A DNA stretch of 64,000 bases from Escherichia coli (GCF_030013205.1 NZ_CP122648.1), one strand, 5' to 3'. Counted from the first letter of the stretch, positions 8,145 to 49,336 are shown. The notes: a model not told the origin generated them from the letters alone. Translations and numbers: made by a program.

Positions 8145-8762
8145 TTACACTTCCTCCGGATTAGCCAGATAACCAGTGGTATCGCCGGTTGGGCGGCTGT
8201 TGGCGTTAGGTTTGATAACGATATTGGGTTTTGTGAAATGCGCGCGCGGCAGTGGCGCGACGGCAGCCAGAGTGCCGTGCTTCTGGCGCAGCTCTTCAAT
8301 TGGACCGAACTCAAGTGCACGCAGCGGGCAGGATTCGACACATATGGGTTGTTTCCCCTCGGCGACGCGCGAATAACAACCATCGCACTTCGTCATGTGC
8401 CCTTTTTCAGCATTGTACTGTGGCGCGCCGTACGGACAAGCCATGTGGCAGTAGCGGCAGCCGATACAAACATCTTCATCAACCACCACAAAGCCATCTT
8501 CACGCTTATGCATTGCGCCGCTGGGGCAGACTTTTGTACATGCGGGGTCATCGCAATGGTTACAGGAGATGGAGAGATAATAAGCGAACACGTTCTGGTG
8601 CCAGACGCCATTATCTTCCTGCCAGTCGCCGCCAGCATATTCATAAATACGGCGGAAACTGACTTCCGGGCCAAGATCTTTAAAATCTTTGCACGCCAGT
8701 TCGCAGGTTTTACAGCCAGTACAGCGGCTGGAATCGATAAAAAATCCATATTGTGTGGTCAT
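8145..8762 (-). CDS. ynfG: 4Fe-4S ferredoxin-type electron-transfer subunit YnfG (DmsB paralogue)
   Basis: 205-aa ORF with four CxxCxxCxxxCP-type cysteine clusters. Confidence 0.9.
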   Translation of the reverse strand: MTTQYGFFIDSSRCTGCKTCELACKDFKDLGPEVSFRRIYEYAGGDWQEDNGVWHQNVFAYYLSISCNHCDDPACTKVCPSGAMHKREDGFVVVDEDVCIGCRYCHMACPYGAPQYNAEKGHMTKCDGCYSRVAEGKQPICVESCPLRALEFGPIEELRQKHGTLAAVAPLPRAHFTKPNIVIKPNANSRPTGDTTGYLANPEEV

Positions 8763-18913: not shown

Positions 18914-19024
18914 ATGACAATAGAAAAACACGAAAGAAGCACTAAGGATTTGGTGAAAGCAGCAGTATCGGGATGGCTGGGCACTGCGCTTGAATTTATG
19001 GATTTCAAGAGTCATGCGTGTTAA
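18914..19024 (+). pseudogene. ydfJ: 5' fragment of ydfJ (first ~29 codons) severed by prophage insertion
   Basis: MTIEKHERSTKDLVKAAVSGWLGTALEFMDF then reads into prophage DNA (KSHAC*); the continuation MDFQLYSLGAALVF... is found at 46503. Confidence 0.65.
18992..19006. repeat. prophage attachment-site core repeat, int-proximal copy (gaatttatggatttc)
   Basis: ttatggatttc is repeated at 46501..46511 exactly where the two ydfJ halves break. Confidence 0.55.
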
Positions 19025-19043: not shown

Positions 19044-20339
19044 TTAATTTTTCATTGCTTCGTTATGGGGCATGGTTGGGGCAAACTCGCTTAACTGTGT
19101 ATTTAACAAAGCTACCTGTGCATTATTGTTTTCAGACATCCATTTTCCGTATACCTGAAATACCATTTGCGCATCTGCATGGCCCATCTGGTTTGCTATA
19201 AATGCCGGGTTAGCACCAGCTGTCAGCGACCAGCAGGCATAAGTATGTCTCGACTGATATGATTTTCGATGGCGGAGTCCGGCACGTTTTATCGCTGCGT
19301 CCCACATCTGCCTTATTGAGTCAACGGTAAAATGGTCACCATAATTTTTTACTCTCGCTGACACTTCAGGTTGAAAAACAAAGGTGCATTTTTGTTTTTC
19401 TGTTCTGCCATACTCTCTGAGGTGAACATCAATGATATGCTCTTTGCTCAGTCTCGTTAATGTCATCTGACTCCGGAGAGCGTCGATTGCTGGCTTAATA
19501 AGATGAATGACCCGATTGGTTCCCGCCTGTGTTTTTGGTACCGTGAAACGGTCTTTTGCTAAATTTCTCCTGATCATCATTGTTCCATTTTTCAGATCTA
19601 TGTCCTCCCATCCAAGTGCACACAGCTCACCAGGGCGAACTCCAGTATAAACAGAAACACACCATAAATTTTTTGCTTGCTGATTTCTGCACGCATCGAT
19701 AAGACGGATAAATTCTTCCCGCGAAAGAGGATCCGGAATGGTTCTTGATTCCTTTAATGGCGAGATCCCCTTAAACGGATTATCTGCCAGGTAACCGTTA
19801 TCAACACCAAACTGGAACACGGCGTTAAGATTTGTCATGTAATTATTTACAGTTACAGCCGATCTCCCTGGTTGTGTAACAATATAGTTACTTTTGGGGA
19901 TCTGGTATCCAGTCAGTAACTCTTTACGAACCTCCAGTAATTTTTCTTTATTAATCGATGAGGCAAGATTTTTTTCACCGATTATGCTCAGGATATTTTT
20001 GATGACGGCACGGTATGTGTTGAGTGATGTTTTGGCGACTTCAGTTTCTTTCAGTGCCAGAAATTTTTCAGCCAGTTCTTTTATGGTTAAATCTTGTCGG
20101 GCCTCACCAAATTTTTCCAGATTGCGTGAGGAGGGAAACTGTTTTGCATAGTCGAAAACACCAGTTTTTATTGCGTAACAAACAGAGGAGCGTAGTTCAC
20201 CTGCAACGCGCCTGTTTTTTGCTGTGTCAGGAACCCCCAGATTTTCCCTGACTCTTACGTCTTTATAAACAAACCAGATACGTAATTTCCCTCCATGGTT
20301 TTCCACGCCTGTCGGATATTTCATTTCAACTTCTCTCAT
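19044..20339 (-). CDS. intQ: tyrosine-type phage integrase (apparently intact)
   Basis: 431-aa ORF adjacent to att core, with C-terminal catalytic R...HxxR...Y-type region (RHRKSYQSRHTYACW); internal ATG at 20324 (MKYPTGV) may be the true start. Confidence 0.85.
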   Translation of the reverse strand: MREVEMKYPTGVENHGGKLRIWFVYKDVRVRENLGVPDTAKNRRVAGELRSSVCYAIKTGVFDYAKQFPSSRNLEKFGEARQDLTIKELAEKFLALKETEVAKTSLNTYRAVIKNILSIIGEKNLASSINKEKLLEVRKELLTGYQIPKSNYIVTQPGRSAVTVNNYMTNLNAVFQFGVDNGYLADNPFKGISPLKESRTIPDPLSREEFIRLIDACRNQQAKNLWCVSVYTGVRPGELCALGWEDIDLKNGTMMIRRNLAKDRFTVPKTQAGTNRVIHLIKPAIDALRSQMTLTRLSKEHIIDVHLREYGRTEKQKCTFVFQPEVSARVKNYGDHFTVDSIRQMWDAAIKRAGLRHRKSYQSRHTYACWSLTAGANPAFIANQMGHADAQMVFQVYGKWMSENNNAQVALLNTQLSEFAPTMPHNEAMKN

Positions 20340-20358: not shown

Positions 20359-20610
20359 TCAAGTAAGATGACGTCTTGGTCTCGCTGATGCCTGGCGCTC
20401 AATCCAGCGATCAATTTCTTCCAGGTTGTAAAAGCATGGACTGTTATCCCATGGCATACCGTCATGAGCGACATGCTTATATTCCCTTCCTTCCATAAAC
20501 GATTTTTCCCGGGCCTTTTTTAACGTACCTTTTTTTATTCCTTTCAGCGCAATTAACTGCTCTTCGGATACCCATTTGCCGGGAGAGACAATCATGATTA
20601 CTTCGCTCAT
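20359..20610 (-). CDS. excisionase-like small DNA-binding protein
   Basis: 83-aa ORF immediately upstream of int in the same orientation; basic N-terminal region. Confidence 0.7.
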   Translation of the reverse strand: MSEVIMIVSPGKWVSEEQLIALKGIKKGTLKKAREKSFMEGREYKHVAHDGMPWDNSPCFYNLEEIDRWIERQASARPRRHLT

Positions 20611-25381: not shown

Positions 25382-25612
25382 ATGCTTAAAACTGACGCTC
25401 TTTTGTATTTCGGTTCAAAAACAAAACTTGCACAAGCAGCAGGTATTCGTTTGGCTTCGCTTTATAGCTGGAAAGGGGATTTAGTTCCCGAAGGTCGCGC
25501 GATGCGTCTACAGGAGGCATCTGGCGGGGAGCTTCAGTATGATCCCAAAGTTTATGATGAATATCGTAAGACGAAGCGGGCGGGGCGGTTGAACAATGAA
25601 AATCACTCCTGA
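25382..25612 (+). CDS. dicC: Cro-like regulator DicC
   Basis: 76-aa ORF MLKTDALLYFGSKTKLAQAAGIRLASLYSWKG... Confidence 0.9.
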   Translation: MLKTDALLYFGSKTKLAQAAGIRLASLYSWKGDLVPEGRAMRLQEASGGELQYDPKVYDEYRKTKRAGRLNNENHS

Positions 25613-25919
25613 ACAGGCTCGTGAGGCTCTGGATGCCTGGATATGTCGACCAGGAATGACACAGGAGCAGGCGACGATATTAATCACTGAAGCATTCTGG
25701 GCTTTGAAAGAGCGCCCGAACATCGATGTTCAGCGTGTCACATATGAAGGTGGCGCGATTGATCAGCGAGCGCTTGGCGTTATCTGGTCATCACCTGACG
25801 GAGAAATACGTCGCTACGACAGTCGCCTAAACATAATCTGTCGCGAGTGCCGGAAGAGCGAAGTTATGCAGCGCATACTGGCTTTCTATCAGGGTAATTT
25901 TCAGGACGTGGCGCAGTGA
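25596..25919 (+). CDS. hypothetical prophage early-region protein
   Basis: 107-aa ATG-initiated ORF overlapping the dicC stop by 17 nt; its TGA overlaps the GTG start of the next gene (GTGAGTG). Confidence 0.45.
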   Translation: MKITPEQAREALDAWICRPGMTQEQATILITEAFWALKERPNIDVQRVTYEGGAIDQRALGVIWSSPDGEIRRYDSRLNIICRECRKSEVMQRILAFYQGNFQDVAQ

Positions 25920-29585: not shown

Positions 29586-29635
29586 TCTTGTAATGTTAAC
29601 TATCAGAAATTCTTGTAATGTTAACTATCAGAAAT
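29586..29635. repeat. perfect 25-bp tandem direct repeat x2 (tcttgtaatgttaactatcagaaat)
   Basis: Read directly; each unit contains a GTTAAC palindrome; lies just downstream of the flxA terminator. Confidence 0.85.
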
Positions 29636-34596: not shown

Positions 34597-34896
34597 AAAA
34601 ATTCCTTAATACTGATAACTTGGCGCACTATACACACGTTCCTGAAGAAAGCTATAGTTTTTTGATGGGGTTGAAGATGGCTGGATGTCTAAAATAAACA
34701 TTGCTTCATATGTTCAACTATGCGTTAATGATTGCGTCGGTTTGAAGAACAGACGATATACGAAGTAGTTTACTAAAGCAGTTCTCATTTCAGGTGTTAT
34801 TCACTTATTCCTTCTTTGAGTCTCTCCAATTAAGTACGAAGTCGTTTCTGTTATGCAAACCATTTATGCCGAAAGGCTCAAGTTAAGGAATGTAGA

Positions 34897-35112
34897 ATGT
34901 CAAATAAAATGACTGGTTTAGTAAAATGGTTTAACGCTGATAAAGGTTTCGGCTTTATTTCTCCTGTTGATGGTAGTAAAGATGTGTTTGTGCATTTTTC
35001 TGCGATTCAGAATGATAATTATCGAACCTTATTTGAAGGTCAAAAGGTTACCTTCTCTATAGAGAGTGGTGCTAAAGGTCCTGCAGCAGCAAATGTCATC
35101 ATTACTGATTAA
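34897..35112 (+). CDS. cspB: cold-shock protein CspB
   Basis: 71-aa [54 protein letters not shown]... Confidence 0.9.
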
Positions 35113-35475
35113 AATTCATCGCTCGTCTGTATACGATAACGAAGAAGGCTGATGCCTGAGTAGAGATACGGACAGAGTAGTGAATATTGGATCTCTTTAA
35201 TAAAAAGTAAGGAGGTCCAATACATGAAACAATGGCTAGCATATTTGGCAAAATCTTAATCAGGAAAAGTATGCTAACCATTGTGGTGAAGTGCAGGTTT
35301 GCTGAATGAATAGTTTTACAGCAGAAGCTAACTGCTGGCATGGCAAAACAAAGTGCGTAAGTGGATGACTCCCACAAAAAGCACCACAATCTCAAACCCG
35401 CTCAGGCGGGTTTTTTATTATCTGCTTTAAATATATTATTAAAATATAAAAAATACTTGTTACTAATAAAATCAA

Positions 35476-37421: not shown

Positions 37422-37782
37422 GGTAATATTAAATCGGAACATTTACATCGCGGAATGTAAAATTTAAATAAAAAGGACTCTTCCATGAGCCAAAATTCCT
37501 GAAATCTTAAGGGTAAGATAAAAGGTCTTAATCAGAATGACACGTTTTATTAATAAATAAAGCTATTCTTTCATTGCTGTGTTTTTCTTTACAAAAGTAA
37601 TCCTTGCTATGGGTGGTTAATCATGCGTTAATGGTGTTCTGGTTTGTTACAAATTTATCTGAAGCAGTCATTGTTATAATTTTATTATTTGTACCTCTTG
37701 AGATTTCCTTGTTGGTTTTTCTCTCTGATATTTTTTTCGGACCATTCTGCCCAAGGGCTAATTTCTTCAAAAGGTAATAATT

Positions 37783-37995
37783 ATGTCTAACAAAATGACT
37801 GGTTTAGTGAAATGGTTTAACCCTGAAAAAGGTTTTGGTTTCATCACGCCGAAAGATGGCAGCAAAGATGTGTTTGTCCATTTCTCAGCAATTCAGAGCA
37901 ACGATTTCAAAACATTAACTGAGAATCAGGAAGTTGAATTTGGTATTGAGAACGGACCTAAAGGTCCTGCCGCTGTTCATGTAGTGGCGCTTTGA
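37783..37995 (+). CDS. cspI: cold-shock protein CspI
   Basis: 70-aa [54 protein letters not shown]... Confidence 0.9.
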
Positions 37996-38197
37996 GGTAG
38001 ACAATATTACAAACCATATTCACTTTAGATGCCCGTGTTGTCATGGTTCCCAGTATAGAACATCATCTTTTGATGTTTCTGACATGAATCCTTTCGGGGC
38101 AAAATGTATCTTTTGTAAATCAATGATGATTACATTTGATAATATTTCACAATACTTAAATGCCAGCCGTCTGTCGTTGGATTTGAAAAAGTGAAAA

Positions 38198-39461: not shown

Positions 39462-39695
39462 TCAATCTGGTCTGACCTGTTTTCTGAGCAATTCAGTAAT
39501 GTCACTCTTTTCTTTGTTTGCTTCAGAAGAAACTCTTTTTTCTGAGCACAGTCTCCGGCGGCAGGCTTCAATGACCCAGGCTGAGAAATTCCCGGACCCT
39601 TTTTGCTCAAGAGCGATGTTAATTTGTTCAATCATTTGGTTAGGAAAGCGGATGTTGCGGGTTGTTGTTCTGCGGGTTCTGTTCTTCGTTGACAT
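39462..39695 (-). CDS. small RHH/Arc-like DNA-binding protein (YlcI-like)
   Basis: 77-aa ORF MSTKNRTRRTTTRNIRFPNQMIEQINIALEQKGSGNFSAWVIEACRRRL...; sits just upstream of cos and Nu1. Confidence 0.65.
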   Translation of the reverse strand: MSTKNRTRRTTTRNIRFPNQMIEQINIALEQKGSGNFSAWVIEACRRRLCSEKRVSSEANKEKSDITELLRKQVRPD

Positions 39696-39879
39696 GAGGT
39701 TGCCCCGTATTCAGTGTCGCTGATTTGTATTGTCTGAAGTTGTTTTTACGTTAAGTTGATGCAGATCAATTAATACGATACCTGCGTCATAATTGATTAT
39801 TTGACGTGGTTTGATGGCCTCCACGCACGTTGTGATATGTAGATGATAATCATTATCGCTTTACGGGTCCTTTCCGGTG

Positions 39880-39990
39880 ATCCGACAGGTTACGGGGCGG
39901 CGACCTCGCGGGTTTTCGCTATTTATGAAAATTTTCCGGTTTAAGGTGTTTCCGTTCTTCTTCGTCGTAACTTAATGTTTTTATTTAAAA
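39880..39990 (+). other. lambda-type cos site (cosQ-cosN-cosB), cosN GGGCGGCGACCT at 39895..39906
   Basis: ...acaggttacg|gggcggcgacctcgcgggttttcgctatttatgaaaattttccggtttaagg... reproduces the lambda end-join and left-end sequence; Nu1 ATG follows about 190 nt later as in lambda. Confidence 0.85.
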
Positions 39991-40083
39991 TACCCCCTGA
40001 AAAGAAAGGAAACGACAGGTGCTGAAAGCGAGCTTTTTGGCCTCTGTCGTTTCCTTTCTCTGTTTTTGTCCGTGGAATGAGCA

Positions 40084-40629
40084 ATGGAAGTCAACAAAAA
40101 GCAGCTGGCTGACATTTTCGGTGCGAGTATCCGTACCATTCAGAACTGGCAGGAACAGGGAATGCCCGTTCTGCGAGGCGGTGGCAAGGGTAATGAGGTG
40201 CTTTATGACTCTGCCGCCGTTATAAGATGGTATGCCGAAAGGGATGCTGAAATTGAGAACGAAAAGCTGCGCCGGGAAGTTGAAGAACTGCGGCAGGCCA
40301 GCGAGACAGATCTCCAGCCAGGGACTATTGAGTACGAACGCCATCGACTTACGCGTGCGCAGGCCGACGCACAGGAGCTGAAAAATGCCAGAGACTCCGC
40401 TGAAGTGGTGGAAACCGCATTCTGTACTTTCGTGCTGTCGCGGATCGCAGGTGAAATTGCCAGTATTCTCGACGGGATCCCCCTGTCGGTGCAGCGGCGT
40501 TTTCCGGAACTGGAAAACCGACATGTTGATTTCCTGAAACGGGATATCATCAAAGCCATGAACAAAGCAGCCGCGCTGGATGAACTGATACCGGGGTTGC
40601 TGAGTGAATATATCGAACAGTCAGGTTAA
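40084..40629 (+). CDS. nohA: terminase small subunit Nu1 (full length, lambda-like)
   Basis: 181-aa ORF MEVNKKQLADIFGASIRTIQNWQEQGMPVLRGGGKGNEVLYDSAAVIRWYAERD... Confidence 0.95.
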   Translation: MEVNKKQLADIFGASIRTIQNWQEQGMPVLRGGGKGNEVLYDSAAVIRWYAERDAEIENEKLRREVEELRQASETDLQPGTIEYERHRLTRAQADAQELKNARDSAEVVETAFCTFVLSRIAGEIASILDGIPLSVQRRFPELENRHVDFLKRDIIKAMNKAAALDELIPGLLSEYIEQSG

Positions 40630-42088
40630 CAGGCTGCGGCATTTTGTCCGCGCCGGGCTTCGCTCACTGTTCAGGCCGGAGCCACAGACCGCCGTTGAAT
40701 GGGCGGATGCTAATTACTATCTCCCGAAAGAATCCGCATACCAGGAAGGGCGCTGGGAAACACTGCCCTTTCAGCGGGCCATCATGAATGCGATGGGCAG
40801 CGACTACATCCGTGAGGTGAATGTGGTGAAGTCTGCCCGTGTTGGTTATTCCAAAATGCTGCTGGGTGTTTATGCCTACTTCATAGAGCATAAGCAGCGC
40901 AACACCCTTATCTGGTTGCCGACGGATGGTGATGCCGAGAACTTTATGAAAACTCACGTTGAGCCGACCATCCGTGATATTCCTTCGCTGCTTGCGCTGG
41001 CCCCGTGGTATGGCAAAAAGCACCGGGATAACACGCTCACCATGAAGCGTTTCACCAATGGTCGTGGCTTCTGGTGCCTGGGCGGTAAAGCGGCAAAAAA
41101 CTACCGTGAAAAGTCGGTGGATGTGGCGGGTTATGATGAACTTGCTGCTTTTGATGATGATATTGAACAGGAAGGCTCTCCGACGTTCCTGGGTGACAAG
41201 CGTATTGAAGGCTCGGTCTGGCCAAAGTCCATCCGTGGCTCCACGCCCAAAGTGAGAGGCACCTGCCAGATTGAGCGTGCAGCCAGTGAATCCCCGCATT
41301 TTATGCGTTTTCATGTTGCCTGCCCGCACTGCGGGGAGGAGCAGTACCTTAAATTTGGCGATAAAGAGACGCCGTTTGGCCTCAAATGGACGCCGGATGA
41401 TCCCTCCAGCGTGTTTTATCTCTGCGAGCATAATGCCTGCGTCATCCGCCAGCAGGAGCTGGACTTTACTGATGCCCGTTATATCTGCGAAAAGACCGGG
41501 ATCTGGACCCGTGATGGCATTCTCTGGTTTTCGTCATCCGGTGAAGAGATTGAGCCGCCGGACAGTGTGACCTTTCACATCTGGACGGCGTACAGCCCGT
41601 TCACCACCTGGGTGCAGATTGTCAAAGACTGGATGAAAACGAAAGGGGATACGGGAAAACGTAAAACCTTCGTGAACACCACGCTCGGTGAGACGTGGGA
41701 AGCGAAAATCGGCGAACGTCCGGATGCTGAAGTGATGGCAGAGCGGAAAGAGCATTATTCAGCGCCCGTTCCTGACCGTGTGGCTTACCTGACCGCCGGT
41801 ATCGACTCCCAGCTGGACCGCTACGAAATGCGCGTATGGGGATGGGGGCCGGGTGAGGAAAGCTGGCTGATTGACCGGCAGATTATTATGGGCCGCCACG
41901 ACGATGAACAGACGCTGCTGCGTGTGGATGAGGCCATCAATAAAACCTATACCCGCCGGAATGGTGCAGAAATGTCGATATCCCGTATCTGCTGGGATAC
42001 TGGCGGGATTGACCCGACCATTGTGTATGAACGCTCGAAAAAGCATGGGCTGTTCCGGGTGATCCCCATTAAAGGGGCATCCGTCTAA
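40604..42088 (+). pseudogene. terminase large subunit gpA, truncated after about 494 codons
   Basis: Lambda A-like N-terminal region (Walker A-like region, ...[14 protein letters not shown]) ends at a stop at 42086; full-length lambda gpA is about 641 aa. Confidence 0.85.
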
Positions 42089-42149
42089 GGGACGCTTCCT
42101 GAACAACATTAACGCGGTCAGTAAAACAGACTTTGCTGATAAGCGTGGT

Positions 42150-43904
42150 ATGCGTTATGTGCGGGTTAACGCTCCTGCAGGTGCAACATCTGGAAAATAT
42201 TACCCTGTTGTTGTTATGCGTTCTGCTGGCTCAGTAAGCGAACTGGCATCAAGGGTCATTATCACCACGGCACCGCGAACCGCAGGCGATCCGATGAATA
42301 ACTGCGAGTTTAACGGATTTGTTATGCCTGGTGGCTGGACTGACAGGGGGCGTTATGCTTATGGAATGTTCTGGCAATATCAAAACAATGAACGAGCCAT
42401 CCACTCAATAATGATGAGTAATAAGGGCGATGATTTGCGCTCTGTGTTCTATGTTGATGGCGCTGCTTTCCCTGTTTTTGCGTTTATCGAAGATGGCCTG
42501 TCAATATCCGCACCTGGTGCTGATCTCGTTGTTAATGATACGACCTATAAGTTTGGGGCAACAAATCCAGCGACTGAATGTATCGCGGCGGACGTTATCC
42601 TTGATTTTAAGAGTGGGCGTGGTTTTTATGAGTCTCATTCGTTAATCGTTAACGATAACTTGTCGTGCAAAAAACTTTTTGCCACAGACGAAATTGTAGC
42701 GCGTGGTGGTAATCAGATTCGAATGATAGGTGGGGAGTATGGTGCATTATGGCGTAATGATGGCGCTAAAACTTACCTGCTGCTTACCAATCAAGGTGAT
42801 GTTTATGGTGGCTGGAATACATTAAGACCGTTTGCTATTGATAACGCAACCGGCGAACTGGTTATTGGAACCAAACTGTCCGCAAGTCTGAACGGTAATG
42901 CATTAACAGCAACAAAGCTGCAAACGCCAAGACTGGTTTCTGGTGTTGAGTTTGATGGTTCCAAAGATATTACTTTAACCGCCGCGCATGTGGCTGCTTT
43001 TGCCAGAAGGGCAACGGATACATATGCCGATGCGGATGGTGGCGTTCCCTGGAATGCCGAATCAGGCGCTTACAATGTCACCCGCTCTGGCAACAGCTAT
43101 ATTCTGGTTAACTTCTATACCGGAGTCGGAAGTTGCCGGACATTGCAGATGAAGGCGCATTACAGAAATGGAGGTCTGTTCTACCGTTCCTCAAGAGATG
43201 GCTATGGTTTTGAGGAAGACTGGGCAGAAGTTTATACCTCGAAAAATCTTCCACCAGAAAGCTACCCAGTCGGTGCACCAATCCCGTGGCCATCAGATAC
43301 CGTTCCGTCTGGTTATGCCCTGATGCAGGGGCAGACTTTTGACAAATCTGCTTACCCGAAACTTGCAGCCGCTTATCCGTCAGGCGTGATCCCTGATATG
43401 CGTGGCTGGACGATTAAGGGCAAACCTGCCAGTGGTCGGGCCGTATTGTCTCAGGAACAGGACGGCATTAAATCGCACACCCACAGCGCCAGCGCATCCA
43501 GTACGGATTTGGGGACGAAAACCACATCGTCGTTTGATTACGGCACTAAATCCACGAATAACACCGGGGCGCATACCCATAGTGTTAGCGGTACGGCTGC
43601 TTCAGCCGGTGCACATACCCATTCGATAACATTTGTTTCAGGTGGCACCAAAGGTGCTCCGGGAAGTGGATCACCTGATTATTCTAAATACAGTGTTAAC
43701 ACTTCTTCTGCAGGCGCTCATACGCACTCTGTATCGGGTACTGCTGCAAGCGCAGGTGCACACGCACATACTGTAGGTATTGGTGCGCATACGCACTCGG
43801 TTGCGATTGGTTCACATGGACACACCATCACCGTTAACGCTGCTGGTAACGCGGAAAACACCGTCAAAAACATCGCATTTAACTATATTGTGAGGCTTGC
43901 ATAA
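42150..43904 (+). CDS. side tail fibre C-terminal remnant with HxH repeat tip domain
   Basis: 584-aa ORF; frame is open upstream to 42063 without a start; C-terminal [20 protein letters not shown]... repeats; followed by tfa with ATGA-type overlap. Confidence 0.8.
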
Positions 43905-44479
43905 TGGCATTCAGAATGAGTGAACAACCACGGACCATAAAAATTTATAATCTGCTGGCCGGAACTAATGAATTTATTGGTGAAGGTGATGCATATATTC
44001 CGCCTCATACAGGTCTGCCAGCAAACAGTACCGATATTGCACCGCCAGATATTCCGGCTGGCTTCGTGGCTGTTTTCAACAGTGATGAGTCATCGTGGCA
44101 TCTCGTTGAAGATCATCGGGGTAAAACGGTTTATGACGTGGCTTCCGGCGACGCGTTATTTATTTCTGAACTCGGTCCGTTACCGGAAAATGTTACCTGG
44201 TTATCGCCGGAAGGGGAGTTTCAGAAGTGGAACGGCACAGCCTGGGTGAAGGATACGGAAGCAGAAAAACTGTTCCGGATCCGGGAGGCGGAAGAAACAA
44301 AAAACAACCTGATGCAGGTAGCCAGTGAGCATATTGCGCCGCTTCAGGATGCTGCAGATCTGGAAATCGCAACGGAGGAAGAAATCTCGTTGCTGGAAGC
44401 ATGGAAAAAGTATCGGGTATTGCTGAACCGTGTTGATACGTCAACTGCACAGGATATTGAATGGCCAGCACTGCCGTAG
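43904..44479 (+). CDS. tfaQ: tail fibre assembly protein
   Basis: 191-aa [57 protein letters not shown]... Confidence 0.9.
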
Positions 44480-44576: not shown

Positions 44577-45167
44577 TTATATGTCAGGTGTCTGAAGTTT
44601 TGCTTTGGCTCTTAAAATGGTTTGCCGCGAGGTTTTGAATTCCCGGGCAATGGCACTTATACTTACACCTGACTTAATTCGTTCGAATACCGCCTGTTTC
44701 TGTTCTTCATTTAACACAGGTGGTCGACCAAAACGTTTCCCTGCGCCGCGGGCACTTACTATCCCGGAATGAGTGCGTTCAAGTAAAAGGTCTCGTTCAA
44801 ATTCAGCGACTGCTGAAATTACTTGCATCATCATTTTTCCTGTTGGACTGGTCAGGTCAATGCCCCCCAATGCTAAGCAATGCACTCTGATACCTGTTTC
44901 GGTCAGTTGTTCCACTGTTTTCCTGATATCCATTGCATTACAACCAAGGCGATCCAGTTTTGTCACAATCAATTGATCACCACATTTCAGGCGAGCAAGC
45001 AACCGGTTAAAACCAGGACGCTCACTGGTTGCTGCTGAGCCGCTAATGTGTTCTTCGATTATTTGCTGAGGTTTGATTTTAAAACCTGCACTTTCGATTT
45101 CCCGGCGTTGATTTTCGGTGGTCTGATCCAGCGTTGATATCCGACAGTAAGCAAAAATTCGAGACAT
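44577..45167 (-). CDS. pinQ: serine recombinase DNA invertase Pin
   Basis: 196-aa [23 protein letters not shown]... with catalytic Ser in YCRIST and C-terminal HTH. Confidence 0.95.
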
Positions 45168-46497: not shown

Positions 46498-46511
46498 GAA
46501 TTATGGATTTC
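46498..46511. repeat. prophage attachment-site core repeat, distal copy (gaattatggatttc)
   Basis: Matches 18992..19006 (ttatggatttc identical); coincides with the start of the ydfJ 3' portion. Confidence 0.55.
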
Positions 46512-47875: not shown

Positions 47876-49336
47876 ATGGGAAATAATTTGTTATCAGCAA
47901 AAGCGACGCTCCCTGTTTATGATCGTAATAACCTGGCCCCAAGAATTGTTCATTTAGGCTTTGGCGCATTTCACCGTGCGCATCAGGGCGTGTATGCCGA
48001 TATTCTTGCTACAAAACATTTCAGTGATTGGGGATATTATGAGGTCAATTTAATCGGCGGCGAACAGCAAATTGCCGATTTACAACAGCAAGATAATCTT
48101 TATACCGTTGCGGAAATGTCGGCCGATGCGTGGACGGCTCGCGTCGTTGGCGTCGTTAAAAAAGCCTTGCACGTACAGATAGATGGCTTAGAAACCGTGT
48201 TGGCTGCGATGTGTGAACCGCAAATCGCGATTGTCTCTCTGACAATCACCGAAAAAGGGTATTTCCACTCTCCGGCGACCGGACAGTTAATGCTCGATCA
48301 CCCGATGGTCGCTGCCGACGTGCAAAATCCCCACCAGCCGAAAACTGCAACAGGGGTGATTGTTGAGGCGCTGGCTCGCCGTAAAGCGGCAGGACTTCCC
48401 GCATTTACCGTCATGTCATGTGACAACATGCCAGAAAACGGTCATGTTATGCGTGACGTTGTCACTTCCTACGCGCAAGCTGTTGATGTAAAACTGGCAC
48501 AATGGATCGAAGTAAACGTGACTTTCCCATCAACAATGGTGGACCGTATTGTGCCCGCAGTGACAGAGGATACGCTGGCGAAAATCGAACAACTTACCGG
48601 TGTGCGCGATCCTGCTGGCGTTGCCTGTGAACCTTTCCGCCAGTGGGTAATAGAAGATAACTTTGTTGCCGGACGTCCGGAATGGGAAAAAGCGGGAGCC
48701 GAACTGGTTAGTGATGTGCTGCCTTATGAAGAGATGAAGTTGCGCATGCTCAACGGCAGTCATTCATTCCTGGCGTATCTGGGGTATCTTGCTGGATATC
48801 AGCACATTAATGACTGCATGGAAGATGAACATTATCGTCATGCAGCGTATGCCTTGATGTTGCAGGAACAAGCGCCGACGTTGAAAGTGCAGGGCGTTGA
48901 TTTGCAAGATTACGCTAACCGATTAATTGAACGCTATAGCAACCCGGCGCTACGTCATCGAACCTGGCAGATTGCGATGGATGGCAGCCAGAAATTGCCA
49001 CAGCGGATGTTGGATTCTGTTCGCTGGCATCTGGCGCATGACAGCAAGTTCGATCTGCTGGCGCTGGGCGTCGCAGGTTGGATGCGTTATGTCGGTGGTG
49101 TTGATGAACAGGGAAATCCGATAGAAATCAGTGACCCACTGTTACCTGTTATTCAGAAGGCTGTACAAAGTAGTGCCGAAGGGAAAGCGCGCGTCCAGTC
49201 ATTGCTGGCGATTAAGGCGATCTTTGGTGATGATTTGCCAGACAATAGCTTGTTTACTGCAAAAGTGACGGAAGCGTACTTGTCTTTATTAGCGCATGGT
49301 GCGAAAGCGACCGTTGCGAAATATTCCGTGAAGTAA
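47876..49336 (+). CDS. ydfI: mannitol-dehydrogenase-family oxidoreductase YdfI
   Basis: 486-aa ORF with N-terminal Rossmann GFGAFHRAH motif. Confidence 0.9.

Follow-up and report, generated by a model that had tools for sequence, protein, structure and literature searches.

A Qin-type cryptic prophage allele of Escherichia coli that keeps a lambda-like cos site and ends its terminase gene at a recurrent TA breakpoint in the side tail-fibre gene

The cos-nohD (nohB) region of DLP12 belongs to a defective prophage in which a lambda-type cos, nu1 and a portion of A persist with some 98% identity (De Paepe et al. 2014, PMC3945230). Lambda gains markers from this cos-nu1-A region at a rate roughly 100-fold that found with Qin or Rac; 10 of 19 DLP12-lambda crossovers lay next to cos and were put down to breaks that terminase makes in the two partners, and nu1 of DLP12 is functional in lambda (PMC3945230). 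From O157 Sakai it is known that prophages defective in terminase or head genes are packaged, Sp4 most likely through the terminase of Sp14, whose cos is nearly identical (Asadulghani et al. 2009, PMC2669165), and both lambda and phi80 mobilise the cos-bearing island EcCICFT073. Here we consider a 64,000-nt stretch of an E. coli chromosome (GCF_030013205.1, NZ_CP122648.1), hereafter the window, in which positions are counted from the first letter, lambda bp 1 corresponds to position 39895, and features lie on the strand given (+) unless stated. It holds an allele of Qin, a locus under study since the 1980s, in which a cos site and the terminase small-subunit gene nohA stand beside a terminase large-subunit gene fragment (A') that runs into the 3' part of a side tail-fibre gene (stf'). 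This is a lineage-specific allele of the Qin cryptic prophage, of a known kind and already annotated as pseudogenes, and a case of ordinary prophage decay. We give a probability of roughly 85% to the explanation as a whole, in which the segment would be what is left of the late operon in a defective lambdoid prophage of Qin (Kim) type, located in ydfJ in a porcine enterotoxigenic E. coli (ETEC)/O139 lineage, would act toward infecting phages as a passive cos target and recombination donor, and would owe its terminase–tail-fibre junction to something other than random breakage.

The assignment to Qin follows from position and content: the prophage lies inside ydfJ, between rspB and ydfI, and carries dicBF, relBE-hokD and the cspB/F/I cargo. 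Its ends are marked by the longest exact repeat common to both prophage-host junctions, the att core TTATGGATTTC, which is found at 18996..19006 in the 5' part of ydfJ (attL, the left end) and at 46501..46511 at the start of the 3' part (attR, the right end). From attL to attR the prophage measures 27,505 bp, and the ydfJ frame resumes across it, from ...EFMDF at attL to MDFQLYSL... at attR. The RefSeq annotation of K_EC180, one of the matching strains, places a Qin-type prophage between rspB and ydfJ and gives, in its early part, int, xis, a gene for an 823-aa exonuclease, ydfD, dicB, ydfC/B/A, dicA, dicC and a run of pseudogenes, followed by ydfW, flxA, relBE, hokD, rem, ydfU, ydfT (Q), cspF, cspB, essD and ydfR in the middle, and by rrrQ, rzpQ, cspI, ynfN, gnsB, ydfO, ynfO, nohA, A', stf', tfaQ, pinQ and ydfK in the late part; dicF also has its place in this order, next to dicB. 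The two gene fragments at the junction appear there as pseudogenes, the terminase as "incomplete; missing C-terminus" and the tail fibre as "incomplete; missing N-terminus". Rfam matches to DicF, sok, two cspA-type leaders and IS009 occur at the expected places. Eleven chromosomes are 100% identical to the window, all of them from porcine ETEC/O139:H1 strains, and the exact A'-stf' junction is present in 14 of 5,426 complete E. coli genomes, 14 of 14 porcine.

The Qin (Kim) prophage of K-12 shares with this allele the ydfJ site next to rspB, the succession of genes that starts at dicB/dicF, passes relBE, cspB/F/I, essD-rrrQ-rzpQ, ydfO/ynfO, cos and nohA and ends with tfaQ-pinQ-ydfK, and the joining of packaging genes to a 3' tail-fibre remnant. 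However, in K-12 nohA lacks its 3' end, A is missing entirely, stfQ is shorter, and the junction, GAATATA|ACCGCG, lies in another type of stf module. The K-12 intQ is a pseudogene disrupted by IS2, whereas int, xis and the gene for the 823-aa exonuclease are intact in the window, and the K-12 prophage measures 20.5 kb against 27.5 kb for the allele described here.

The initial annotation had taken the segment from about 39880 to 42085 to be collinear with the left end of lambda, and had proposed an alignment to lambda to map the breakpoint. This alignment, run against the lambda-DE3 record, is ungapped from 39533 to 42090 with 42 substitutions, the final mismatch being at 42088; collinearity thus holds, and it begins about 360 bp upstream of cos rather than at 39880, with homology to the lambda right end (lambda -361 to -30) at 39533..39864. 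Between 39533 and 42087 the identity to the lambda right end, cos, Nu1 and A codons 1-494 is 98.4%, and in a BLAST search against phage records the opening 2,388-2,391 bases of the query matched lambda at 98.5%; a match of 2.5 kb at 98.4% cannot be chance. Comparison of the window with lambda and with a full-length stf places the deletion junction at the 2-bp TA at 42086..42087, where A reads GTC TA|C GGA and stf reads GA TA|A GGG. The two parents overlap by this TA alone, and the junction itself builds the stop codon of A', as the TAA at 42086-42088 replaces the TAC (Tyr495) of lambda. Identity to the full-length stf of strain ET490 (1132 codons) starts at 42086/42088, that is, at codon 511/512.

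The A' pseudogene (40604..42088) accordingly holds gpA 1-494, exactly 494 codons as had been estimated, followed by the junction-formed TAA, and stf' (42087..43904) runs from codon 512 to the end of the gene, matching the tail-fibre family phrog_295 over profile positions 471-794 of 794. The stf' frame is open back to 42063, just after a TGA at 42060-62, and the earliest start in it is the ATG at 42150, in agreement with the earlier description of a 3' remnant without a start. Every head and tail-shaft gene is missing at the junction, along with the 3' end of A on one side and the 5' 45% of stf on the other. A single deletion had been proposed for this loss. We would likewise picture one junction event, joining A codon 494 to stf codon 512 across the common TA, and the single clean junction agrees with it; what does not stand is the certainty of the claim, as later deletions erase the scars of earlier ones. 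The junction also looks non-random.

The retained packaging genes differ in their state. The nohA gene (40084..40629) encodes a complete Nu1-type terminase small subunit of 181 aa (phrog_57, E=5.5e-77, residues 1-181), so the full-length Nu1 of the earlier description is indeed there; it differs from lambda Nu1 by three substitutions, K48R, A75T and L132I, none of which falls in the recognition helix (residues 17-24) or the wing (residues 31-39). The 494 aa of A' match gpA 1-494 at 100% identity; of the codons that differ, 22 are synonymous and 0 non-synonymous. In Pfam terms the GpA_ATPase domain is complete (model 3-237 of 247) and the GpA_nuclease domain truncated (model 2-177 of 294). Given the layout of gpA, in which the nuclease is followed by a coiled-coil helix and a portal tether (PMC9026076), the loss of residues 495-641 takes away 40% of the nuclease domain, the coiled-coil helix and the C-terminal portal-binding tether and leaves the N-terminal TerS-binding segment. 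Because the nuclease domain is cut and the coiled coil and portal tether are gone, A' cannot be an active terminase. The perfect amino acid conservation of A' needs no selection, since other strains (H46, H47) have longer A genes whose DNA shows 100% identity as far as the breakpoint, and the deletion is recent. Searches of NCBIfam at E<=1e-5 gave no matches for NohA, A', Xis or Stf'.

The same locus carries other scars elsewhere. In the Qin prophage of ET490, A is cut 34 bp further upstream and joined to the 3' end of lom, with a full-length stf left in place (junction at 8353-8356 of sequence L003, corresponding to window position 42053), and this junction is not of the TA type. CT02 has a longer A' followed by other tail remnants, and in K-12 nohA' is joined to a different stf module. 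A derivation of the window allele from an allele of the ET490 A'-lom' type was considered and rejected, as ET490 retains 34 bp less of A; since the window allele keeps more of A than ET490 does, the two deletions are independent. That two breakpoints in A fall within 34 bp of each other may be coincidence. The prophage at the ydfJ locus has decayed independently several times.

The cos site itself is well preserved. A cosQ, GGGTCCT, is found at 39865..39871 with an exact match to lambda and lambda spacing, the position of cosQ in lambda being bp 48473-48479. The other subsites are delimited as defined by Feiss and colleagues (PMC9026076, PMC4856287). The cosN site (39893..39908), made up of the 12-nt cohesive end at 39895-39906 and 2 bp on each side, is that of lambda, and the cohesive end, GGGCGGCGACCT, occurs as a single copy in the window; from lambda -35 to +52 there are zero differences. 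The bent segment I2 (39912..39943) equals that of lambda, including the critical bp 30-35 (PMC4856287), which correspond to 39924-39929, and no indel alters the spacing from cosN to R3. In cosB (39944..40059), which comprises R3 at 39944-39959, the I1 region, R2 at 40003-40018 and R1 at 40044-40059, R2 and R1 are identical to lambda, and R3 (bp 50-65) has a single change, C53T at 39947. The remaining differences (A73G, T102C, one G lost near 138, and A188G) fall between subsites. For the last of these a shift in numbering must be kept in mind: the lambda reference has an extra G at bp ~138, between R2 and R1 (GAGGCTTTTT, window position 40031-40032), which is absent from the window, DE3, 1H12, 4B5, K-12 Qin and ET490, that is, from every other cos compared, and coordinates past bp 137 therefore shift by one relative to NC_001416.

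The change in R3 deserves attention, as it falls in the conserved core CGTTTCC and could be thought to inactivate cos. We rejected this, because bp 53 lies outside the segment contacted by TerS (bp 55-63, with deleterious changes at bp 56, 58 and 59; these and the limits of R3 are from PMC9026076) and because the same base is present in 1H12 and Lambda_4B5. These two are isolated plaque-forming phages in which T53, G73, C102, delG138 and G188 occur all together, and they differ from the window in the cosB stretch at bp 85 only. At R3 bp 53-54 (window 39947-39948), the window, 1H12 and 4B5 read TG, while K-12 Qin and ET490 read CA, and this polymorphism among natural cos sites suggests that the two positions tolerate change. 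As all defined subsites are intact and the variant bases are those of plaque-forming phages, the cos is very probably cuttable by a terminase of lambda specificity. The initial annotation had spoken of a functional-looking cos and had named mutations in cosN or cosB that abolish terminase recognition as what would speak against its proposal; judged from the sequence, every defined subsite appears intact and no such mutation is seen at known critical positions.

What could follow from such a cos was the central claim of that annotation, which regarded int, xis and cos as the minimum needed for excision and for packaging in trans by a lambda-like helper. Under this proposal the prophage would be a helper-dependent transducible element resembling a cos satellite, excised by its own Int and Xis and packaged from its own cos by the terminase and capsids of a helper. 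Part of it is well founded. The integrase gene (19044..20339, - strand; 431 aa, phrog_1 at E=2.8e-75, a tyrosine-recombinase match in NCBIfam, and "site-specific integrase" in RefSeq) and the excisionase gene (20359..20610, - strand; 83 aa, phrog_539 at E=1.4e-35, residues 1-79 on profile positions 1-79 of 80) are uninterrupted, and their family matches over the full length indicate that both have been kept. The cos cannot be told apart from that of working phages, and precedents exist in Sp4, packaged by Sp14, and in the lambda-mobilised island EcCICFT073.

Replication is where the proposal meets its first difficulty. In lambda the genes of this region are ordered cII-O-P-ren, and the window has at 25596..25916 a single open reading frame (ORF) of which residues 1-49 resemble a CII-like activator (profile 10-52 of 168) and residues 48-106 a Ren-like protein (profile 76-115 of 116). 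Given that order, this cII'-'ren fusion is the scar of a second deletion, in which the O/P replication module was lost, and the interval from dicC to ydfW accordingly holds only pseudogenes in RefSeq. We would assign this loss to a deletion separate from the one that made the A'-stf' junction. The packageable form of lambda DNA is the concatemer, that is, two cos sites in cis (PMC9026076, PMC4856287); with no replication and no second copy, no concatemers would form. Size is a further obstacle, as the lambda capsid takes about 38-52 kb and cos replicons below this range are packaged only when several copies together reach it (PMC9764419), and the excised circle is too short as one copy (27.5 kb) and too long as two (55.0 kb). 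No capsid genes remain in the prophage according to the RefSeq annotation. A packaging run from the integrated cos would go rightward through nohA and attR, 6.6 kb away, into ydfJ-ydfI-dcp; the window contains no second cos, including the remaining 24 kb rightward of cos, and the matching complete genomes contain no other lambda-type cos-nu1-A region, so that neither a resident helper nor a terminal cos for a run in situ is available.

The comparison with described mobile systems points the same way. The Sakai prophages are amplified, by their own or by regional replication, and have co-resident helpers, whereas the element in the window lacks O/P, a resident helper and a size that fits the capsid. 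Phage-inducible chromosomal islands, or PICIs, of the cos type, such as EcCICFT073, and cosmids have in common with it a helper-compatible cos in cis, and int and xis for excision. Yet the islands also have their own replicon, a helper-responsive regulator, an interference or redirecting function and about one-third of the helper's size, so that multimers fill the head, and among the features tested the window element shows none beyond int, xis and cos. No gene for helper-responsive derepression or helper sensing, and none for interference or packaging redirection (e.g., Rpp), is annotated, a statement about the annotation, as no dedicated search was made. Moreover, the allele is found in a single pig-associated lineage and gives no hint of having spread horizontally, and the different, independent deletions at the same locus in other lineages form a pattern of decay, not a maintained design. 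With no replicon, a misfitting length and neither a resident helper nor a terminal cos, efficient transfer as a unit is unlikely, and we regard a cos-satellite-like role as improbable. Of the helper-packaging proposal there remain the retention of Int, Xis and cos and the existence of precedents; the notion that these make up a minimum is not supported, and the general point is that cos, int and xis are not sufficient for mobilisation and that a replicon and a fitting length are needed as well.

If the element is thus probably neither autonomous nor efficiently mobilised by a helper, the decayed remnant may still matter to phages that enter the cell. Its cos would be a passive target, cuttable by the terminase of an infecting phage of lambda specificity, and the 2.5 kb of 98% homology around cos together with the stf'-tfa homology would make it a recombination donor from which hybrid phages could arise. 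By analogy with what was measured for DLP12 and Qin of K-12, the more likely role is that of a site which terminase cuts and from which infecting lambda-type phages take up DNA by recombination, and the formation of hybrid phages would be expected because the allele offers such phages both the cos-region and the stf'-tfa homologies. The DLP12 study differs in that it used K-12, for whose Qin prophage only the stf-tfa homology was assayed; the window allele has both. As a natural and less-decayed Qin allele, with int and xis, a cos of phage grade and a complete nohA, it would be a convenient substrate for examining the effects of a chromosomal cos, such as cutting, recombination and rare transfer, during infection by lambda-type phages.

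A benefit to the host might also be imagined, in which cos titrates or misdirects the terminase of lambda-type phages, and NohA and the nuclease-less gpA(1-494) form dead-end terminase complexes. The fragment would be suited to this, as it retains the TerS-binding N-terminus and a complete ATPase and lacks the nuclease and portal ends; nohA is intact in the window and in several other Qin alleles, and gpA(1-494) is free of amino acid changes. However, the zero non-synonymous changes are explained by the recency of the deletion, DNA-identical intact or longer A genes being found in other strains, and K-12 and other lineages have lost A' entirely or have a cut nohA. In addition, no promoter-like site stands out (3 found versus 5.9 expected). 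We consider such a decoy function very improbable, and we retain the passive cos target and recombination donor as the reading of this locus.

The tail-fibre end of the deletion is the part of the locus that departs from a textbook picture. At the same stf nucleotide as in the window (site 1, 42086-42088; GATA|AGGGACGC), seven different upstream late genes are joined to stf. The left partners are gpA in the window; a truncated Rac-type terminase small-subunit gene (terS) in a Rac-type prophage of NCTC9087; essD in a DLP12-type prophage of CFSAN061772; and four more that were added by IMG/VR, namely a tail gene, K of the lambda type, nohA by its 3' end and a Q-like gene by its start. Outside the window these junctions lie in sequences L010 (4003-4005), L011 (3001-3003), L026, L029 (3869-3871), L049 (7013-7015) and L109. 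The orientation is the same for all seven of these upstream late genes, and TA is the last sequence of every one. The IMG/VR prophage contigs contain about 66 copies of the stf part to the right of the junction, most of them in an intact gene reading ...CCCGATA|AGGGACG. In one contig (L097, IMGVR_UViG_651053023_000019, reverse-complement position 1470/1471) the reciprocal is seen, as the left half of site 1 is kept and the right half lost, and the unrelated DNA joined to it carries a small GIY-YIG-like ORF and a gene for a cytosine-5 DNA methyltransferase. As an observation in its own right, the K'-stf' junction of L029 (3840-3900) is in frame and predicts a chimeric K-Stf protein instead of a dead remnant.

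Two further positions behave similarly. Site 2 lies in a different stf module, which when intact reads GGTCGGGTA|ACCGCGCTG (..|ACCGCG), and has at least four left partners, all ending in TA; it includes the classical K-12 nohA'-stfQ junction (L004, reverse-complement position 20162/3), and further contigs with it are L015 (4054-4056), L075, L083, L085 and L086. Site 3 corresponds to window 42309-42311, 223 nt downstream of site 1 (GAGTTTA|ACGGATTTG), and has two left partners, gpA around codon 247 and a gene to which no name could be given (L113/L114 and L115). The TA is conserved at 13 of 13 junctions at these recurrent sites, and beyond the TA the partner and the replaced stf flank have a mean identity of 27%, which is chance. 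Further junctions within this 1.5-kb interval (at -1173, -1037, -497, -228 and -182) serve as a control; they are single and show 0-3 nt of arbitrary microhomology. If endpoints were uniform over nucleotides, the probability of at least 6 of 13 other junctions falling on the pre-specified site would be about 1e-16, and it is 8e-7 if endpoints are restricted to the 35 TA sites of the interval. Because this clustering of independent junctions exceeds chance, the stf breakpoint is a genuine hot spot and the junction in the window is not a random deletion; the tail-fibre end would then be a fixed TA that independent deletions have reused. A search of the accessible literature for a described tail-fibre deletion hot spot returned nothing relevant.

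Site 1 directly follows the conserved motif ...SETLAATPKAVKxAYDNAEKRLQKDQNGADIPDK and coincides with the boundary where the conserved shaft gives way to the variable distal module, at which intact stf genes are also mosaic. Such mosaicism fails to explain the base-exact reuse of the site with partners that are not stf. Relaxed homologous recombination and ordinary microhomology-mediated end joining (MMEJ) were rejected because the identity of the flanks beyond the TA is at the 27% of chance. Selection for an in-frame stop or fusion was rejected as well, as it is only in the window allele that the TAA falls in the frame of the left gene; elsewhere the frames disagree, and in the K' allele the left gene reads on into stf in frame.

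Taken at face value, the pattern implies a site-directed break or crossover at a TA dinucleotide. We advance tentatively, at somewhat less than an even chance, that an undescribed TA-centred and site-directed process of breakage or recombination repeatedly cuts short the late operons in prophages of the Qin, Rac and DLP12 types at a small number of stf positions, namely GATA|AGGGAC, GGTA|ACCGCG and TTTA|ACGGAT. If true, this would be a specific route by which prophages are "grounded" while the distal stf-tfa module is spared. The remaining candidates for its nature are the excision of an insertion sequence (IS) with an adjacent deletion, or a recombinase or nuclease with a 2-bp TA stagger.

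In the first of these, an IS once stood at the stf TA, and a deletion associated with its excision, for example one promoted by IEE, joined the exact flank to a distant upstream TA. Deletions of this kind (Kusumoto 2011; Calvo 2023, PMC9943667) are alike in having one exact and one variable, distant endpoint, a short microhomology and no element left behind, and they come from ETEC- and EHEC-type (enterohaemorrhagic E. coli) backgrounds. IEE-dependent deletions extend from a few nt to >40 kb beside the IS with 2-6 nt of microhomology, and IEE is present in >33% of E. coli genomes (PMC9943667). Excision would also account for the reciprocal case of L097, in which the left flank is kept. However, the stf sites show no IS, and a search that did not cover complete E. 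coli genomes exhaustively turned up no IS-occupied allele in the roughly 66 module copies of IMG/VR or in the JGI metagenomes, where a query made of the left half of site 1 plus a non-A base returned only chance 19-mer matches in unrelated genes; an IMG/VR scan requiring a non-A base at position -3 returned nothing, a result to be read with the fact that several real junctions have A there. The explanation also demands repeated insertion at the same three TA sites, and MMEJ would be expected to give varied microhomologies, whereas at the stf sites it is invariably TA. The one example tested of an E. coli IS with a 2-bp duplication, IS30, was rejected: its lambda hot spot, LHS, lies at 33.2-33.5 kb and not in stf, and the LHS palindrome has no counterpart at the stf sites, which are unlike it. 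A transposon end at the stf breakpoint was likewise rejected, no inverted copy of AGGGACGCTTCCTGAAC being found at <=3 mismatches. Altogether, we think IS excision unlikely to be the cause.

The second candidate is a site-specific recombinase with a 2-bp TA crossover, similar to a serine recombinase, acting between the stf site and upstream quasi-sites. It would explain why the TA is exact at every recurrent-site junction with chance-level identity elsewhere, and why breaks can keep either side of the site, and a serine invertase gene of the Din family, pinQ (44577..45167, - strand; identified as an ORF, in RefSeq and by NCBIfam), lies 2.5 kb downstream. A deletion mediated by Pin was nevertheless rejected, as nothing resembling pix is found at the breakpoints or in the window and the cores of the e14 pix sites are AA/TT, not TA. 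The 26-bp Din-family site (the dyad TTNNNNNAAACC-NN-GGTTTNNNNNAA) had 0 matches in the window at <=3 mismatches, and none was found in the stf-pin region of the window and of ET490 at <=2 core mismatches; as a positive control, the same type of search recovered the e14 pix sites. The apparently intact pinQ thus has no recognisable crossover site or invertible segment in the 64-kb window, and pin is absent beside some of the affected prophages. For any recombinase of this kind it also counts that dyad symmetry is slight at the three recurrent sites (4-5 of 12), that these bear little resemblance to one another, and that only deletions are seen, while a palindromic core should also yield inversions. 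We hold this second candidate to be distinctly doubtful. The broader reading, that of a TA-centred process of so far undescribed kind, is the one that we keep, with the reserve expressed above.

Some points weigh against our overall explanation and should be set beside it. That the A'-stf' junction arose in a single event is unprovable from one scar. The term "site-directed" is drawn from the clustering of junctions alone, and no occupied allele, recombinase site or structural motif was found at the stf sites. Inefficient packaging of under- or over-length DNA may be possible, and rare recombination into a helper genome may mimic "transduction" of the element. Finally, there is an A->G change at 39858 (lambda -37), 7 bp outside cosQ, without a functional example; the comparison with 1H12 and 4B5 covered the cosB side of cos.

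As far as the terminase–tail-fibre remnant is concerned, textbook prophage decay at a known locus changes little. The recurrent TA breakpoint is the more interesting part, as the same TA has been reused across unrelated lambdoid prophages. If a specific enzyme or an IS-excision pathway is behind it, this would explain the repeated disarming of prophages in E. coli, and with it the many cryptic prophages that end in a packaging-gene remnant followed by the distal tail fibre and tfa.

A few observations concern the rest of the prophage. Downstream of stf', the tail-fibre assembly gene tfaQ (43904..44479) is intact and holds, inside it and on its coding strand, a full-length Rfam match to the small RNA (sRNA) IS009 (44247-44445, 221.7 bits). 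In the early region, near ydfW/flxA, a 25-nt unit, TCTTGTAATGTTAACTATCAGAAAT, is perfectly duplicated in tandem (two copies, 29586-29635). The two cspA-type thermoregulator leaders lie at 34736-35128 and 37638-38022, and a 200-nt direct repeat that is 73% identical (34897-35096 versus 37783-37982) reflects the cspB/cspI paralogues inside the prophage.

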